DNA from: a virus
UHGV virus genome: UHGV-0099061
Direction: 5' to 3' (one strand)
Length of the DNA: 31,035 bases
Position 1 is the stretch's first letter. Every line of letters begins with the position of its first letter. Under the pieces are notes generated by a model. It ran no database searches. It had not been told where the DNA came from and worked only from the letters and a program-made list of their open reading frames with translations. This document shows, piece after piece, positions 16,072 through 22,569 of the stretch. Position numbers and translations under genes: made by a program.

Positions 16072-16770
16072 ATGATCCATGTTCGTACAGGACAATTTGC
16101 TGCCGTGGTGAACGGTAAGCGCTATGAGTTTAATCCTTGCTTTGCTGCGATGGCTAAAATCGGCAACGATAGTGAGCTTGTCGAATATTTCGCACTTATC
16201 CACGGCGGCAAATATCCATCACGATTGCCAGCAGATCCAGACCTACGCAATCGCATTCTGGCGCGGTGTTATGGTGAAATAGTTAAGACATCAATGCACA
16301 TCCTGAAATGTTGCTCAGACGACGAAATAGGCCAGTTATTGGGCGAATGCTGGTTTACTCCTTCGGGTAAGTTAAAGTTAAAGCCCGGATTAATGCCGAT
16401 CGAGGATATCATCACGCTTGCGCAGCACTGCATGTACCACGGTCTTATTGGTGATGGCCCGGAAGAAGAGTCCGGGGAAATCCCGGAAGGGGAATATAAG
16501 CCGACTTTTAACGTCCTTGAATTCGTCTATTCTGCCGTTGCTCACCTGGGCTTGTCAGAATCGGAAGCATGGAATATGACAATGACCGGATATAGGGCCG
16601 CTGTACGCGCTAAAACGCCGCCAGACGAAAGAAACGAGAAAAGCAAGCCAAACATTCACATAAATAAACGTGCTTATGACGAGCAAATGGAGGCCGCTAA
16701 AAAGGCACTAGAAAGAATGAAAAATCGTGAGCAAGAAAAGCCCGGTAGATCCGGGCGTTTTGCTAATTGA
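16072..16770 (+). CDS. putative tail assembly chaperone (233 aa)
   Basis: AAGGTGA SD; position between major tail and tape measure genes; no frameshift partner found; 3' end overlaps a convergent reverse-strand gene. Confidence 0.4.
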   Translation: MIHVRTGQFAAVVNGKRYEFNPCFAAMAKIGNDSELVEYFALIHGGKYPSRLPADPDLRNRILARCYGEIVKTSMHILKCCSDDEIGQLLGECWFTPSGKLKLKPGLMPIEDIITLAQHCMYHGLIGDGPEEESGEIPEGEYKPTFNVLEFVYSAVAHLGLSESEAWNMTMTGYRAAVRAKTPPDERNEKSKPNIHINKRAYDEQMEAAKKALERMKNREQEKPGRSGRFAN

Positions 16771-17137
16771 AATCTTTAATTGCTGTACCTGGTGAACTGT
16801 GTGTGATTGTATTGTATACAGACTTTGCCTTACTGCGATCTTTCCATTCTTTTAGGATGCAGTTATCAAACTTTGCGATAACCCTTGAAGGGGATAATTC
16901 TTCAACATCCATGTAAGTAAATCCTATCGTGCTGGTTACTGAATACCATACGTGATAACTATAATTACCGTCATGCTCGATTCTTTGTGGTTCCCCCATT
17001 ATTTTATTCACTTGCTCACAAGTCATTCCAACTTGCAAATTTTTATCAGCTAACTTAACGAAATCAGTTGATCTTGCGCACCCTGTAAGAGCTAAAGCCA
17101 TAACACCAATGAGAACCGCTTTGATTATTTTTTTCAT
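16763..17137 (-). CDS. lipoprotein (124 aa), second gene of reverse-strand pair; BamE/SmpA-like sequence character
   Basis: AAGGGG SD; signal peptide with lipobox LTGC; mature part (..LQVGMTCEQVNKIMGEP..) resembles small BamE-type lipoproteins as recalled. Confidence 0.65.
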   Translation of the reverse strand: MKKIIKAVLIGVMALALTGCARSTDFVKLADKNLQVGMTCEQVNKIMGEPQRIEHDGNYSYHVWYSVTSTIGFTYMDVEELSPSRVIAKFDNCILKEWKDRSKAKSVYNTITHSSPGTAIKDFN

Positions 17138-17147
17138 GATTTACCCC

Positions 17148-17807
17148 TTAATTCCAGTTGCAAGCGTTTTTCACTTTGTCGATGTGGTTATAAAGACCAT
17201 CAATGTTAAACACTGCTTTCTCAATGTCGCCAGCTTCCGGCACTACTTCAATGATGAATTGTTTTTCGTTAACCAGTTTTTTAATCATTGGGATGGCTTT
17301 TTTGCCGTCCCATAATCCAAGAGCTTTATAATTAGTTGACCGCCACCACTCAGTAGCTACAGCTTTGTGAACGCCGATCCGGTAGTTAATATAAGTAGTG
17401 TCCCCGGCGTCAGTTACATGGTGTGACCATGCTACGAACATTTTTGTTTTATTACCCTGGCAAGCGATTGTTAATACCGGTTTATTCTTATCCTGTGCCT
17501 TCAGTGTCGGGAAAGCATCAAGACTTCCGCTGAATTGTTCTGCTTTCACAAAAAGGAATACGTTTTTTGCGTCCTGCATATCATCTTTTCTTTCAACTAC
17601 AAGCCACTGTTTACCAGCATTTTCTTTTTCTAACTGTGCATCGTATGCGGCTTGTTTTGCTTGTTGTTCTGCAAGCCATTTAGCATTTTTCTCTGCTAAT
17701 GCTTGTTGCTCTTGATTGGTCACTATAGGCGCTTTTTCATTATCCTCATTGCAACCAACCAGACCCAATACCGCCGCAATCATTGCCACTTTTGCTAACC
17801 GTTTCAT
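17148..17807 (-). CDS. lipoprotein (219 aa), first gene of reverse-strand pair
   Basis: GGTGGG SD; signal peptide with lipobox LVGC; Gln/Ala-rich coiled-coil-like segment after the lipobox; promoter-like palindrome upstream. Confidence 0.65.
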   Translation of the reverse strand: MKRLAKVAMIAAVLGLVGCNEDNEKAPIVTNQEQQALAEKNAKWLAEQQAKQAAYDAQLEKENAGKQWLVVERKDDMQDAKNVFLFVKAEQFSGSLDAFPTLKAQDKNKPVLTIACQGNKTKMFVAWSHHVTDAGDTTYINYRIGVHKAVATEWWRSTNYKALGLWDGKKAIPMIKKLVNEKQFIIEVVPEAGDIEKAVFNIDGLYNHIDKVKNACNWN

Positions 17808-17852: not shown

Positions 17853-17896
17853 CTTATACAAAATGGAGTCGTTGAAGTAAAGCCATTTTGTATAAA
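17853..17896. promoter_or_regulatory. perfect 12-bp palindrome TATACAAAATGG-16 bp-CCATTTTGTATA, probable divergent promoter/operator
   Basis: Seen directly; each arm gives CCATTTTGTATAA(A/G) pointing outward towards the lipoprotein operon (left) and tape measure gene (right). Confidence 0.55.
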
Positions 17897-17934: not shown

Positions 17935-20277
17935 ATGGCTACCAGTGTAGGTACAATTTATTACGAAGTTGATGCGAAAACTGGTCAACTTCTCGTTGCA
18001 CAACGACAGGCAGACCAGGCCTTTGATCGTATAGAGCGCGGCGCAAAACAGGCTGACCGCCAGGTAAACACCCTGAAAACATCCATCAAGGCACTGACCA
18101 GGGTTATCCATCTGCTAATTGCTGCGGAGGCTGTGCGCCAATTTATGGATATGGCGGAGCAAGCAAAAATGCTTCGCGTAAAAATCAAAATGCTTACGGG
18201 CGATGCGGAGTCCGCCGGACGGGTTTTCGACGGCCTGAAAGCAATATCCAGGGAGACGGGGCAGAGCCTGAAAGATACTGGCGAATTATGGCAAGGCCTG
18301 GCTATCTCACTAAAAAACACCTCCGCTACGGAAGGGCAATTGCTTAACCTGGTTGGCACTATTCAGAAAATGGGTGCATTAGGCGGCGCGTCAGCGGAAC
18401 AGATGTCTAACTCAATGCGTCAATTCCGTCAGTCTATCGACGGCGGTGTTCTTCGTGCCGAAGAATTTAACAGCCTGCTTGAAAATACGCCGACCATCGT
18501 ACAAACAATGGCCCGCCATATGGGATTATCAATGGGCCAGTTCCGCGCCGAAATGCTGGACGGCAAGATCACGGCTGAAAGGATGGTTAACGCAATACAG
18601 GCGGCTACGCAGGAAACAAACGATAAGTTTGCTCAGTTGCCGCGCACATCCGGCATGGCTATCAATGAGCTTAAAGTAGAAATTATGGGCCTTGTTGAGC
18701 AGTTGGATGATCTTTTTGGCGTGTCAGATGGCGTTGTTTCAGCTATCGACTTGATCACGAAAGGCGTTAAAGGGCTTGGCGATGGCGCTAAATTCGCTAA
18801 AACCTGCTTCGACACACTCAAAACGGCTGGTAGCGAATTTATCGACATGTTTGATGATGTGGCTGTTAAGGCTGGAGAGGTGGCAGAGAAGATCATCGCA
18901 ATGGTGACGCCAATCAAGGCGCTAATGGATGGCTATAAATGGATGAAGGAGGTAGTAGGAGAGCAAACCGACGAATATAACAGCAACTACGAGAAGAAAT
19001 ACGGGAAGACCGTTGGCAAGGTCATGCAACTACAGGATGATCTGACCGCAGCAATCCAGGCTACAGAAGAAGCAAGGAAAAATGAACAGAATGCTGCCAA
19101 TGACGGAGCGATTACCGGATTCGACAAGCCAGTAGACAAGCCGAAAAAACAGAAAAAAGAGAAGAAATCGGAAGCTGATCGGCTTGGTGACAAAGGTATA
19201 AGCGTTTCTGATCAGTATAACAAAGACGCCGCCGCCATGCGCAAAGCGTTGGAGAACGGCAAGGCCATTGATGCTGCATTTGCCCAGGGTAAAATCACGC
19301 TCCTTGAGTACCGCGCCGCGCAAAAAGGGATCGGCAAGGAACTGAAAGAAGAATTAGCACAAATTCCGGTAGATGAATTGCGTGATAAATGGTCACAAAT
19401 AGTAAGCCCGATGGATCAGCTAAAAGGCGAAGTTGACCCCATCCAGCAGGCGCAAAATGAATGGGCCATCCGTAAGCAAATGCTTATAGACCTGGGCGCT
19501 ACTGAAGCGCAACAGAAACAGGAATTGTTAGCCTATGAGCAACAGATCCGCGATCTGAAATGGGAACAATGGCAGGCGCAAAGCGACACAAACGGCCTTA
19601 TCGGTGATTGTGTTAATGGCCTTAAAGGCGGAATGAGTAATGCGCTTGTTGGCCTGTTAAACGGCACTCAATCATTGAGTGATGTTTTTGCTAACTTAGG
19701 AAGCAATATACTCGGCAATATCGGTAACAGACTCTCAGACATAGCTGCAAACTGGATAGCAGATCAGATCATGATGGAGACACAAAGCAAGGCCACGCAA
19801 ACAAGTACAACAGCAAGCGCGGTAGCAGCTCAGGGAAGCATTGCTGCGGCGGCGGCCCCAGCAGCGGCGGCAACTGCGGCGTCAACTGGCGGTAGCTGGG
19901 CGGCGGCTGGTTCGGCGGCGCTCACTGCGATCATGTCGCTGGCTACGTCAATTTTCGGCGGCGGTCGCTTTAATGGTGGTAGCGTCATTGGTGGTAATAT
20001 GTACCGCGTAGGGGAACACAACAGGCCGGAGCTATTCCAGACATCTAACGGCAATCAATATATGATCCCTGGCGAGAACGGCAGAGTTATTCCGGGCCGT
20101 GATATTGGCGGCGGTGGCGGTATTAGTATGCCTGTCAGTATCAGCATTCAGACCACGAACGGATTCAGCGACGAAGACAGCCGCAGACTTGAATTAACAA
20201 TGGAACGTGTAGCCATGAAAATGATAACAAGGGAATCTCAAAGACCAGGCGGAATGTTGCAACCTCGCCGCAAATAA
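17935..20277 (+). CDS. tail tape measure protein
   Basis: 780 aa, largest ORF between tail tube and tip genes; helical N-terminal region; Gly/Ala-rich hydrophobic segment near C-terminus; GAGGT SD. Confidence 0.8.
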   Translation: MATSVGTIYYEVDAKTGQLLVAQRQADQAFDRIERGAKQADRQVNTLKTSIKALTRVIHLLIAAEAVRQFMDMAEQAKMLRVKIKMLTGDAESAGRVFDGLKAISRETGQSLKDTGELWQGLAISLKNTSATEGQLLNLVGTIQKMGALGGASAEQMSNSMRQFRQSIDGGVLRAEEFNSLLENTPTIVQTMARHMGLSMGQFRAEMLDGKITAERMVNAIQAATQETNDKFAQLPRTSGMAINELKVEIMGLVEQLDDLFGVSDGVVSAIDLITKGVKGLGDGAKFAKTCFDTLKTAGSEFIDMFDDVAVKAGEVAEKIIAMVTPIKALMDGYKWMKEVVGEQTDEYNSNYEKKYGKTVGKVMQLQDDLTAAIQATEEARKNEQNAANDGAITGFDKPVDKPKKQKKEKKSEADRLGDKGISVSDQYNKDAAAMRKALENGKAIDAAFAQGKITLLEYRAAQKGIGKELKEELAQIPVDELRDKWSQIVSPMDQLKGEVDPIQQAQNEWAIRKQMLIDLGATEAQQKQELLAYEQQIRDLKWEQWQAQSDTNGLIGDCVNGLKGGMSNALVGLLNGTQSLSDVFANLGSNILGNIGNRLSDIAANWIADQIMMETQSKATQTSTTASAVAAQGSIAAAAAPAAAATAASTGGSWAAAGSAALTAIMSLATSIFGGGRFNGGSVIGGNMYRVGEHNRPELFQTSNGNQYMIPGENGRVIPGRDIGGGGGISMPVSISIQTTNGFSDEDSRRLELTMERVAMKMITRESQRPGGMLQPRRK

Positions 20278-20283
20278 ACTAAA

Positions 20284-20310
20284 CCCCGGTGCAATGCCGG
20301 GGTTATTTTT
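20284..20310. terminator. rho-independent terminator after tape measure gene (possibly bidirectional)
   Basis: Stem CCCCGG / CCGGGG with 7-nt loop followed by TTATTTTT; also lies 3' of the convergent reverse-strand gene. Confidence 0.65.
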
Positions 20311-20363
20311 CGTATTTATAAACGACCATTCCGCGCGATATATCCCCTTTCGAATATCTCGAC

Positions 20364-20618
20364 TCACTTATGAGTGCCTTTCACGCCACATAACTTGTTA
20401 TAGGCATGGTGCTCAACAATTAACCAAACCTTCAAATCTTCGCTAAACAGCCTCCAATCAAGATTGATATCCATTTTGTATCCGTAACCGTCGCGTAACT
20501 TTTTGGGGTAAACTTCTTTTCTCAGAAAGGCTTTAAGTAATTCCTTACCTTTCTTGATGATCCGGTCCTGTGCGTTTTTCTGTGCTTTCAGATTTCTGTC
20601 AATCGCTACCAGTTTCAT
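20364..20618 (-). CDS. hypothetical basic protein (84 aa), second gene of reverse-strand two-gene cassette
   Basis: ORF with GGGGTGAG SD 17 nt after the stop of the upstream 51-aa ORF; Lys/Arg-rich N-terminal half. Confidence 0.5.
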   Translation of the reverse strand: MKLVAIDRNLKAQKNAQDRIIKKGKELLKAFLRKEVYPKKLRDGYGYKMDINLDWRLFSEDLKVWLIVEHHAYNKLCGVKGTHK

Positions 20619-20635
20619 AACTCACCCCATCATCC

Positions 20636-20791
20636 TTAGTTAAGTGCCTTCAGGAAGAAGTCCCGGTATTCATCTTCTTTCGCATTCATCATGAATTGAC
20701 CGTATTTGAATGCGTCGTCGAAACCCTTAACGATTGCTATTTCCACTTGTTCGAATGCGTTATTTAGCATTACTACTACATAGCGTTTCAT
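20636..20791 (-). CDS. hypothetical small protein (51 aa), first gene of reverse-strand two-gene cassette
   Basis: Found by reading; GGAGG SD 5 nt upstream of ATG; MKRYVVVMLNNAFEQVEIAIVKGFDDAFKYGQFMMNAKEDEYRDFFLKALN. Confidence 0.4.
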   Translation of the reverse strand: MKRYVVVMLNNAFEQVEIAIVKGFDDAFKYGQFMMNAKEDEYRDFFLKALN

Positions 20792-20901
20792 TTTGGGCCT
20801 CCTTCGTTGGTACTACTTTCTTCTTGCTTTCTATATACATCTTGTTGCGTGCTATGTGAAGCCATTTTGTAAACTAGCTATAATCATTGTGACAATGATC
20901 T

Positions 20902-20928
20902 TATTTTTCGCGTAGAAGCGCGTAAAGA
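20902..20928 (+). promoter_or_regulatory. conserved 27-bp intergenic motif, copy 2, upstream of M-like gene
   Basis: 24/27 identical to 8589-8615; 31 nt upstream of ATG 20959. Confidence 0.45.
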
Positions 20929-20958
20929 TATATACAAAATGTAACTTGTGGGGGTTTT

Positions 20959-21312
20959 ATGCCGGAAGTGTTCAGATGGACGCCGCAAAGAAGCTACAGC
21001 GTGACCAGGAAGCCAGACGTATCTGTTGTTAAGCTGGGCGATGGTTATGAGCAAAGACAGGTAAAAGGTATCAATCCATTGCTTGATAGCTACACCCTGG
21101 TGTTTAAAGGCAGTAGCGCCGGATGTGGTGATGGTGGAAACGTAGCAATCCAGGCGGAAGCATTCTTGAGGGCGCGCGGCGCGGTCGAGGCTTTTTACTG
21201 GTCGCCGTCAATGGATAACGTGCAAAGGCTTTTTGTCTGTCGGCAATGGAGCATGACTAAAGACGGGCCTTTGTACACGCTAAACGCAACGTTTGAGCAA
21301 GTTGTTGGCTAA
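20959..21312 (+). CDS. minor tail protein (lambda M-like)
   Basis: 117 aa; FRW..., GDGYEQR and C-terminal FEQVVG resemble lambda M as recalled; position before L-K-I-J. Confidence 0.7.
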   Translation: MPEVFRWTPQRSYSVTRKPDVSVVKLGDGYEQRQVKGINPLLDSYTLVFKGSSAGCGDGGNVAIQAEAFLRARGAVEAFYWSPSMDNVQRLFVCRQWSMTKDGPLYTLNATFEQVVG

Positions 21313-21509
21313 TGGGGGTTGTTATGTACGGGACTTGTGTAGTTGACAAAACTTACGCTTTTACATTGTTTGACGACTATGAGATCAACGACCTTACTGT
21401 AAAAGCTGACAACGGCGATATATGGTATCTTCACGACGTTGGTGATGGGTACGTTGGGTGTAGATCCCGGGAAGGGAAGGAGGTTTTATTTTTGGTTGAT
21501 GGCGTATAA
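21312..21509 (+). CDS. small protein, paralog-family member relocated in tail module (65 aa)
   Basis: ATG overlaps M-like stop (TAATG); motif F..FDDYEI ... DNGDIWYLHD matches the early-region paralog family; followed by a terminator. Confidence 0.5.
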   Translation: MGVVMYGTCVVDKTYAFTLFDDYEINDLTVKADNGDIWYLHDVGDGYVGCRSREGKEVLFLVDGV

Positions 21510-21665: not shown

Positions 21666-21914
21666 CTATAAGTTATCACGCAGATAATTAACGCCCTTAT
21701 CAGTGACGAATGAATGGTTAACCTGGTTTTCATCCGTCATGATGATGAATAACTTTTCATGTAGGTATTTCGCTTTCGGGTACAGCGTTAAACAGACCTG
21801 GTACAGTATCCCGCGCTCAATCAGCAAATCAATAAATTCGTGTTCATGATAACCGATGAGGCGGGCGGCCTGTTTCAACGTGTACACATAATCACCGTGA
21901 TTGCGCCGCCCCAT
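21666..21914 (-). CDS. hypothetical protein with helix-turn-helix-like segment (82 aa), third gene of reverse-strand trio
   Basis: ORF; segment YTLKQAARLIGYHEHEFIDLLIERGIL looks like a DNA-binding HTH; start 9 nt after upstream gene stop. Confidence 0.5.
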   Translation of the reverse strand: MGRRNHGDYVYTLKQAARLIGYHEHEFIDLLIERGILYQVCLTLYPKAKYLHEKLFIIMTDENQVNHSFVTDKGVNYLRDNL

Positions 21915-21923
21915 GTTGCCGCC

Positions 21924-22271
21924 TTATTTATCGAATGCTGAAAGGTTATCGATACAGAAATCTTTCGCCGCTTTTTCGTATTCGCGTTTTGCTTCTGGAT
22001 CGTCAGCCGGGAAACCTTTTGCGTGTATTTCACCAGGGCAAGACTGGTCCATAGAATCTGCATAATAAGCAGTGAAGCTACCATTAATATCTTTCGGGTT
22101 CATATCTTCCACCTCATCAACTATCTGTACCGGATTAGCAGCATATTTCACTGGATGGCCTAAACTACATTCAAGAATCCTGCCTTCTTCCAGGGCTACT
22201 TCTTCGCTATCAAATAATCCGAAACACTCCTTGCTACCACTTAACCACACATCAAGACTGTATTTTTTCAT
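21924..22271 (-). CDS. hypothetical protein (115 aa), second gene of reverse-strand trio
   Basis: ATG 22271 with GAGG 9 nt upstream preferred over longer track ORF (to 22373); overlaps upstream gene by 20 nt. Confidence 0.45.
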   Translation of the reverse strand: MKKYSLDVWLSGSKECFGLFDSEEVALEEGRILECSLGHPVKYAANPVQIVDEVEDMNPKDINGSFTAYYADSMDQSCPGEIHAKGFPADDPEAKREYEKAAKDFCIDNLSAFDK

Positions 22272-22440
22272 TTTTGTTAGCCTCATATTTGACAGGTTCG
22301 ATCTGGTATCCCAAAAGGCGGTCATCCTCAGCAAGTAAAAGCGCGTCAACCAATGCTTCACCCTCGTCGTCATACAGGGCGATAACCTTTTCCCTACCGT
22401 CTGTCATGAATACCGTCAACTTCCATAGCTTTTCAGTCAT
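22252..22440 (-). CDS. hypothetical acidic small protein (62 aa), first gene of reverse-strand trio
   Basis: Strong GGAGGTG SD 6 nt upstream of ATG 22440 (longer track ORF to 22560 has no SD); Asp/Glu-rich. Confidence 0.5.
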   Translation of the reverse strand: MTEKLWKLTVFMTDGREKVIALYDDEGEALVDALLLAEDDRLLGYQIEPVKYEANKNEKIQS

Positions 22441-22569
22441 AACGCACCTCCGCGCCATTTTGTTAACTATGCTTCCGTTTGAGTAAAATATACATATTGT
22501 AAAAACCGCGATCAATCCATTTTGGTATGATTTAGCGTGACGCAGATCACAGAATGACAAGGTGAGAAA

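Follow-up and report, generated by a model that had tools for sequence, protein, structure and literature searches.

A reverse-strand gene pair with a ParE-like member between the tape measure and M-like genes of an mEp021-type Escherichia coli prophage: a possible toxin–antitoxin-like accessory unit

The virus genome UHGV-0099061, analysed here as one stretch of 31,035 nucleotides (nt; the window), contains two small reverse-strand genes (20364–20791) between its tape measure gene and a gene similar to lambda M. The genes encode proteins of 51 and 84 amino acids (aa). The first-pass annotation of this DNA had likened them to a toxin–antitoxin system or to a small defence or anti-defence pair. 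The locus raises the question of whether the two genes form a toxin–antitoxin module and how they came to lie inside a tail module. The results lead us to favour, tentatively, a toxin–antitoxin-like accessory pair, in which the 84-aa protein would be an effector that is tolerable alone and the small helical 51-aa protein a dispensable modulator.

Both open reading frames (ORFs) were found on the minus strand at precisely the positions given in the first-pass annotation, and the 17-nt gap that it described between them was confirmed. A strong Shine–Dalgarno (SD) sequence had been claimed for each gene; this is true of the first gene, and the sequence before the second one is weaker and G-rich. 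The elements of the pair are as follows.

20798–20805, minus strand: strong SD GAAGGAGG of gene 1, 6 nt before the ATG
20636–20791, minus strand: gene 1 (ORF table), encoding the 51-aa protein MKRYVVVMLNNAFEQVEIAIVKGFDDAFKYGQFMMNAKEDEYRDFFLKALN, an orphan family member that has many hydrophobic and aromatic residues and a net charge of about −1
20619–20635, minus strand: intercistronic spacer of 17 nt, holding the weaker G-rich SD GGGGTGAG of gene 2
20364–20618, minus strand: gene 2 (ORF table, Pfam profile match), encoding the basic 84-aa protein, a member of PF24732

Two small, adjacent and co-directional genes with an SD before each are a feature of the type II toxin–antitoxin layout. The order is that of a small, slightly acidic protein first, with the stronger SD, and a basic protein second. 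In relatives, the spacer is 17–23 nt long and the SD of gene 1 is kept as (A/G)GGAGG or GGGGG. The G+C content of the cassette is 0.39–0.43 and its GC skew is inverted, while the G+C content of the flanking tail genes is 0.48–0.60.

Over 801 bases that include the cassette, the window shows 100% identity to prophages of Escherichia coli M1/5, FAH and MS 21-1 and about 83% identity to the phages mEp021, mEp010, 013, 044, 515, 554 and MagusPhagus. It represents an E. coli prophage of the mEp021 type (mEpimmI); the mEpimmI group was defined in PMC11893012, where the gene pair is not discussed. Homologues of the 84-aa gene were recovered in 45 IMG/VR contigs, and homologues were also found in 7 isolated phages and 35 of the 5,426 complete E. 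coli genomes searched. Both genes are real and under strong purifying selection: the pooled Nei–Gojobori ratio of non-synonymous to synonymous divergence (dN/dS) was 0.085 for the 84-aa gene (33 distinct nucleotide alleles) and 0.075 for the 51-aa gene (25 distinct alleles); synonymous sites are close to saturated, with differences reaching about 0.7 per site. In RefSeq, the 51-aa protein is named 'hypothetical protein' (WP_001329613.1) and the 84-aa protein 'ParE family toxin-like protein' (WP_000779577.1); their mEp021 counterparts, gp68 and gp67, respectively, are both labelled 'hypothetical'. An extended homologue search using phmmer against 1.84 billion representatives gave only 7 matches, a profile search added 6 sequences, and a scan of GTDB genomes gave no matches. 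No publication on PF24732, the RefSeq accessions or the PHROGs was found in the library searched.

In order to determine the nature of the 84-aa protein, its profile matches were considered. It matched Pfam PF24732, 'ParE-like toxin domain', with 45.3 bits (E = 9e-12), the gathering cut-off for the whole-protein hidden Markov model score being 24.4 bits, and the match spans residues 19–75 of the protein and positions 2–67 of the 67 in the profile. Every relative tested, down to 31% identity, passes PF24732 (30–73 bits) and no other toxin family. For the 84-aa protein itself, no toxin family besides PF24732 appeared even at E up to 10; it also matched phrog_1525, which has no assigned function. 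The suggestion that the downstream basic protein is of a toxin type is borne out by this match and by the RefSeq name. The first-pass annotation had recognised no RelE/ParE, HicA or other toxin motif, which reflects the limit of reading by eye.

The columns L28, K40, L41, G46, R56, W65, H70 and N74 are invariant over relatives of 31–100% identity. The order of secondary structure elements in the AlphaFold 2 model (beta-alpha-beta-beta-beta-alpha) is compatible, at low confidence, with the compact RelE/ParE fold, in which N-terminal helices pack on an antiparallel sheet of 3–4 strands. On visual comparison, the pattern [DG]-W-R-L-x-S ... W-x-h-h-x-H-x-x-Y-N is similar to the RelE/ParE signature G-D-Y-R-I-x-Y ... 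H-R, and the conserved Arg, His and Tyr near the C-terminus recall RelE/YoeB-type RNases. PDB searches with the cassette proteins (phmmer and profile) were empty. An hhalign comparison of the 84-aa family with RelE, YoeB and RK2 ParE sequences was not significant; the YoeB alignment had a sensible register at a probability below 1%. These characteristics allow us to assume that the gene 2 product could be a small basic protein of the RelE/ParE type, probably acting on nucleic-acid machinery, and the Lys40/Arg56/His70/Tyr73-Asn74 set would favour an RNase-like site over a pure gyrase poison.

The only family match of the 51-aa protein was phrog_29810, with function unassigned, and there was no match in Pfam, NCBIfam, PADLOC or PDB. 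Its homologues are 76–100% identical and conserve Met-1. The N-terminal extensions added by other gene callers vary and are not conserved, whereas the sequence from Met-1 onward is, and so the real start of the gene is Met-1 at 20791. AlphaFold 2 modelled the protein as one long helix (residues 2–50) with a predicted local distance difference test score of 82.6 and a predicted template modelling score of 0.42. The single-helix model suggests that the protein has neither a globular fold of its own nor a recognisable DNA-binding domain; an antitoxin DNA-binding domain was not found in it using Pfam, NCBIfam, PDB or the AlphaFold 2 model. The 51-aa gene always lies directly upstream of the 84-aa gene and was never found without it (41 of 41 viral loci). 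This clade-specific helical peptide would most likely bind and damp the gene 2 product, in the manner of PaaA2 and ParE2.

The distribution of the two genes is nested. They occur together in 43 of 45 viral contigs and 34 of 35 E. coli genomes. The two remaining contigs (L016 and L019, the latter a prophage of E. coli UMNK88) lack the 51-aa gene and have an intact 84-aa ORF directly after the conserved promoter region and a G-rich SD. The complete genome of UMNK88 contains the intact 84-aa gene (WP_000779575.1), and no 51-aa gene was found anywhere in it by blastn, a search that picked up alleles of as little as 76% identity in each of the remaining 34. The partner-less 84-aa alleles keep all the family-invariant residues. 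The two differ by 7 synonymous and 3 non-synonymous substitutions, and since the proportion of synonymous differences (0.141) exceeds that of non-synonymous ones (0.015), the 84-aa gene appears to have stayed constrained without its partner, although these counts are small. In addition, the 51-aa gene of strain MFDS1019527 is frameshifted by the loss of 1 nt in codon 5, next to an intact 84-aa gene. The opposite state, a truncated or frameshifted 84-aa gene beside an intact 51-aa gene, was found in PAR, Ecol_244 and P0035–P0040. As for the origin of the partner-less alleles, a simple microhomology deletion (ATGAAAC) was considered and rejected: although it would fit the junction, the 5′ untranslated regions of the alleles have diverged, which makes the exact end-points ambiguous.

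The 51-aa protein thus does not behave as an indispensable antidote. In type II systems the antitoxin is not lost while the toxin is functional; here it is lost in UMNK88, L016 and L019 and frameshifted in MFDS1019527. An addiction module should also give a strong asymmetry of loss. Among the complete genomes, the 'antitoxin' and the 'toxin' were lost equally often (2 of 35 each). On the reading favoured here, E. coli tolerates the 84-aa effector alone, and the pair would not be an addiction module. The initial suggestion of a toxin–antitoxin-like pair is supported as regards the toxin family and the small, slightly acidic upstream protein with the stronger SD, and lacks support as regards an indispensable antidote.

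We consider it unlikely, for these reasons, that the cassette is a canonical obligate type II toxin–antitoxin or abortive-infection module with a labile 51-aa antitoxin and a lethal 84-aa toxin. Such a module would account for the ParE-like family match together with the operon layout, for the fact that the whole phage lineage has kept the pair, as it would an addictive element, and for the broken toxin genes beside intact 51-aa genes; prophage ParE-type modules whose antitoxin has no DNA-binding domain are also known (PaaA2–ParE2, PMC8630535). It would have to explain the partner-less alleles by a silenced toxin or a host suppressor. Those alleles keep an intact gene 2 behind a promoter and an SD under purifying selection, and the missing partner is nowhere in the UMNK88 genome. 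The equal losses, the lack of co-divergence described below, the absence of a DNA-binding domain and of an operator over the cassette promoter, and the absence of a match to any PADLOC model also argue against it.

One identical 51-aa sequence was found beside 84-aa proteins whose identity ranges from 67% to 100%. There is little correlation between the pairwise distances of the 51-aa proteins and those of the 84-aa proteins (rho 0.15), so no co-evolutionary trace of a specific interface is seen. Distant PF24732 genes have unrelated upstream neighbours, none of them from a known antitoxin family. These observations weigh against a toxin–antitoxin-like pair, as does the possibility that the frameshift in MFDS1019527 stems from a wrong assembly or that translation restarts after it at Met8. 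Varied neighbours are also typical of the 'mix and match' of toxin–antitoxin systems, and this point counts little either way.

The same data bear on the possibility that the cassette encodes two functionally unrelated accessory proteins in one operon, the 84-aa protein working alone, as its relatives in other phages and in plasmids seem to do, and the 51-aa protein having its own host or phage target. The absence of co-divergence is what would be expected, the partner-less alleles are viable and still constrained, and no 51-aa homologue was ever found upstream of distant PF24732 genes. The core of the 51-aa protein is almost invariant whatever its neighbour, as if another target constrained it, and the operons of relatives string together as many as seven small genes, all of them preceded by an SD. 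However, the 51-aa gene is not seen apart from the 84-aa gene, the 51/84 junction of 17–23 nt survives in 43 of 45 contigs while the downstream genes are shuffled, and an acidic protein followed by a basic one, the former having the stronger SD, is the type II pattern. We regard this explanation as somewhat less likely than a toxin–antitoxin-like pair.

Distant PF24732 genes were found in Sortsne-like and Kosakonia phages, in phage contigs and in plasmids of Pantoea, Citrobacter, Salmonella and Serratia (next to DUF2857). The best PF24732 score seen, 73.5 bits, belongs to an 82-aa protein of the Pantoea agglomerans plasmid pFC61912-B_E (L097, 2001–2249). Its gene lies downstream of parB in a backbone like that of an integrative and conjugative element (ICE), flanked by a DUF2857 gene and a replication gene of the STY4528 family; PF24732 was also seen in 38 other plasmid records. 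In the Citrobacter and Salmonella plasmids, the PF24732 match coincides in part with the gene annotated as DUF2857, and the partner in that plasmid lineage might be DUF2857. The siphophages Sortsne (L054, 1989–2210) and Kosakonia phage Kc237 (L055, 1489–1710) encode a 73-aa PF24732 protein, whose gene overlaps by its start the end of a 123–125-aa gene by 4 nt and is located two genes upstream of a holin–lysin pair. It is rather improbable, in our estimate, that PF24732 comprises no toxins of the addiction kind but RelE/ParE-fold effectors deployed solo by mobile elements such as temperate and virulent phages and ICE-like plasmids (e.g., as site-selective RNases or topoisomerase modulators), to which the mEpimmI lineage added the 51-aa protein as its own regulatory or specificity subunit. 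If this were true, a free-standing effector would be acquiring an 'antitoxin', and the module would have been caught at birth rather than in decay.

The second part of the question concerns the position of the cassette. The other features of the region are listed below.

20282–20304, both strands: G+C-rich hairpin, scored as an intrinsic terminator on both strands (terminator scan)
20305–20363, minus strand: remnant of a third operon gene (alignment of cassettes and operon ORF tables)
20471–20481, plus strand: intragenic copy of CCATTTTGTAT, a by-product of codons
20832–20860, minus strand: candidate sigma-70 promoter of the cassette, proposed from conserved hexamers
20856–20941, plus strand: putative divergent control region common to the cassette and the M-like gene
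20959–21312, plus strand: M-like gene, Phage_min_tail (lambda M-like minor tail protein; Pfam PF05939, E = 1e-27)

The M-like identity of the downstream plus-strand gene, proposed in the first reading of the sequence, agrees with the Pfam match, and the terminator placed there after the tape measure gene corresponds to the hairpin at 20282–20304. According to the terminator scan, this hairpin ends the tape measure transcript on the plus strand and the cassette transcript on the minus strand.

A comparison with sister phages whose M protein is 67–71% identical showed that in many of them the tape measure stop and the M start are 2–11 nt apart, and that others have gaps of 168–497 nt with other small ORFs on either strand. 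In all 30 contigs with M at least 82% identical, and in the window too, the gap is 684–1396 nt long and includes the 84-aa gene. Among the complete E. coli genomes, the 84-aa gene and the M gene of the mEp021 type occur in the same 35 of 35. The cassette is thus extra DNA between genes that are adjacent in related phages, as morons are. The junction (20278–20958 in the window; loci L129–L178) is an insertion hotspot, where sister phages have unrelated ORFs of 33–132 aa.

In relatives, up to five more small genes follow in the reverse-strand operon, in combinations that differ between phages (up to seven genes in all, an SD preceding every one); the additional products are 49, 58, 59–61 and 95 aa long. 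In most relatives, the third gene is a 30-aa ORF (MEDDKFTWREIWNIW...ARNGRL) at most 8 nt after the 84-aa gene. The window has the minimal operon plus a remnant of this usual third gene, whose start and middle are deleted. The downstream genes are shuffled freely, whereas the 51/84 junction is kept in 43 of 45 contigs. The cassette is a moron by origin and, in its terminator and base composition, by architecture; of its genes, only the first two have been kept across the whole lineage. The gene pair can be seen as the constant promoter-proximal core of a reverse-oriented accessory ('moron') operon, which entered the tape measure/M junction and became fixed in the mEpimmI lineage. Transcription would run on the minus strand from its own promoter at about 20832–20860 to the two-way terminator at 20282–20304, most likely in the lysogen. 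The likely benefit would lie in competition at the level of the lysogen or the phage, e.g., defence against superinfection or regulation of transcripts of the host or the phage.

These comparisons also make it very improbable that the two genes encode virion or tail-assembly (chaperone-like) proteins. The sole argument for such a role is where the pair lies, between the tape measure gene and the M-like gene. It is encoded on the other strand from every tail gene, has a separate terminator and a lower G+C content, and is absent from sister phages in which the tape measure and M genes are 2–11 nt apart. No structural PHROG or Pfam category was assigned to either protein, and relatives with PF24732 were found in the backbones of plasmids and ICE-like elements as well. 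Homology to a known virion or assembly protein, which the first-pass annotation had named as a finding that would speak against its proposal, was not observed.

The proposed regulation was analysed from the conservation of the upstream region. The putative −35 hexamer of the cassette, TTCACA (20855–20860), lies within the block GGCTTCAC, and the −10 hexamer, TATATA (20832–20837), within TGTATA(T/C)AG. Both blocks are nearly invariant in 40 distinct relatives, and the intervening 17 nt vary in sequence but not in length. Since conserved hexamer blocks with a fixed 17-nt spacing are the footprint of a promoter, this is a candidate promoter of the cassette; a strict consensus scan gave no promoter call for the cassette, position 6 of the −10 hexamer being A and not T. 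On the plus strand, an invariant TATAAT (20879–20884) and a −35 block GTGAAG (20856–20861) face the M-like gene. The −35 of the M gene overlaps that of the cassette, i.e., the promoters would be divergent with one common −35 region, and because the hexamers overlap, the two may compete. A perfect dyad, ATCATTGT-g-ACAATGAT (20883–20899), overlaps the plus-strand −10 and start site; its arms differ in other alleles (e.g., AATTC...GAATT), in which some symmetry persists. No operator was seen over the cassette's own promoter, and the only dyad sits on the divergent M gene promoter. Folding of the M gene leader was no better than that of shuffled sequences (z −1.3), and no Rfam family matched.

The 9-mer CATTTTGTA occurs 6 times in the window against 0.59 expected, and none of 100 shuffles reached 6. 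Two of these boxes are located beside the cassette, at 20863–20871 (plus strand) and 20933–20941 (minus strand). Other inverted pairs were found at 1552–1560 (minus) with 1578–1590 (plus, GCCATTTTGTTA) and at 17857–17865 (minus) with 17884–17892 (plus). The three intergenic pairs lie just upstream of plus-strand late blocks (genes from 1628, 17935 and 20959); the blocks at 17935 and 20959, for which the upstream strand was examined, come after a reverse-strand island. Lying next to −10-like TATAAA/TATAAT boxes, the intergenic pairs look like operators of a phage regulator.

A plus-oriented copy of CCATTTTGTAT inside the 84-aa gene had been proposed to drive an antisense transcript. It was placed at 20473–20485 and actually lies at 20471–20481. 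An antisense circuit at the RNA level, in which this box would drive a regulatory transcript, could draw on the over-representation of CATTTTGTA and the regulatory appearance of its intergenic copies. However, only one sub-clade, with 12 of the 45 homologous genes, has the intragenic copy, and codons account for it entirely: it reads TAC-AAA-ATG-GA for Tyr-Lys-Met-Asp and is lost where the protein has Lys-Phe (most relatives) or an AAG codon for Lys. The scan called no promoter-like site there, and the absence of an Rfam match likewise does not support such a circuit. The proposed antisense promoter thus has no comparative support, and the circuit has hardly any likelihood.

With regard to defence, neither protein matched a known anti-phage system in PADLOC-DB v2, even at E up to 10, and the initial comparison to a small defence or anti-defence pair therefore found no backing. 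As for toxin–antitoxin systems, the cassette shares with ParD–ParE, RelB–RelE and YefM–YoeB a two-gene operon with the antitoxin-type gene first, a small basic toxin-type protein and a RelE/ParE-type name. Unlike the 51-aa protein, the antitoxins of those systems bind DNA (by ribbon-helix-helix or Phd/YefM domains), autoregulate and are indispensable. Phage T4 RegB, an endoribonuclease with a RelE/YoeB-like fold, is not known to have an antitoxin and cuts selected mRNAs in the early programme of a virulent phage. This precedent would fit the solo PF24732 genes in strings of small genes in Sortsne-like and other phages; unlike regB, the 84-aa gene is located in a reverse-strand island of a temperate phage.

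The closest resemblance is to paaR2-paaA2-parE2 of the cryptic lambdoid prophage CP-933P of E. coli O157:H7, which is also prophage-borne and has a small helical antitoxin-type protein without a DNA-binding domain directly upstream of a small ParE-type protein (PMC8630535). PaaA2, which forms a complex with ParE2, is a known exception among antitoxins in having no DNA-binding or autoregulation feature, and overexpression of ParE2 leads to the SOS response (PMC8630535). An antitoxin-type protein without a DNA-binding domain implies, there as here, regulation other than by the antitoxin. The 51-aa protein differs from PaaA2 in having no sequence similarity to it, and there is no third regulator gene in the cassette. 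Unlike ParE2, the effector here survives naturally without its partner and matches PF24732 only. The location differs as well, since the cassette lies in the tail module and paaR2-paaA2-parE2 in the immunity region.

As a probably independent transcription unit inside a late or structural operon, the cassette is similar to the morons encoding HK97 gp15 (superinfection exclusion) and JBD26 Tab (PMC10884400, PMC3594210). It has lower G+C content, as they do, and is absent from sister phages, and a benefit would be expected in the lysogen, typically anti-phage defence. In contrast, gp15 and Tab are single unrelated proteins and morons are usually sporadic, whereas this pair is fixed (35 of 35 prophages) and includes a toxin-type protein.

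Several neighbouring features were also noted. A 65-aa ORF (21312–21509, plus strand) begins at the stop codon of the M-like gene; it corresponds to mEp021 gp70, is present in relatives and has no family match. Other reverse-strand islands of low G+C content break up the tail module at 16763–17807 and 21666–22560. One such island encodes a VasI/TagO-like protein (PF11319, E = 1e-15) and a 124-aa protein with weak DUF7738/BamE matches; a second encodes a short KilAC-domain antirepressor-like protein and two proteins without assigned function.

Prophage-borne ParE-type pairs (PMC8630535, PMC8706911) and the RefSeq name of the toxin-type gene were already known. The orphan 51-aa partner, the nested distribution, the natural partner-less alleles and the fixation of the pair at an insertion hotspot are new. 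Their value is incremental and current views are not overturned. The label 'ParE family toxin-like protein' in RefSeq is not proof of an addiction module, and the natural partner-less alleles offer a ready test of the real toxicity of such 'toxins'. The tape measure/M junction of these siphophages is a hotspot for small accessory genes, and it is at such hotspots that prophage-borne defence functions usually lie. No experimental work on the PF24732 sub-family was found in the library searched; if the 51-aa peptide binds the ParE-like protein, it would be a new antitoxin-type partner without relatives for this sub-family.

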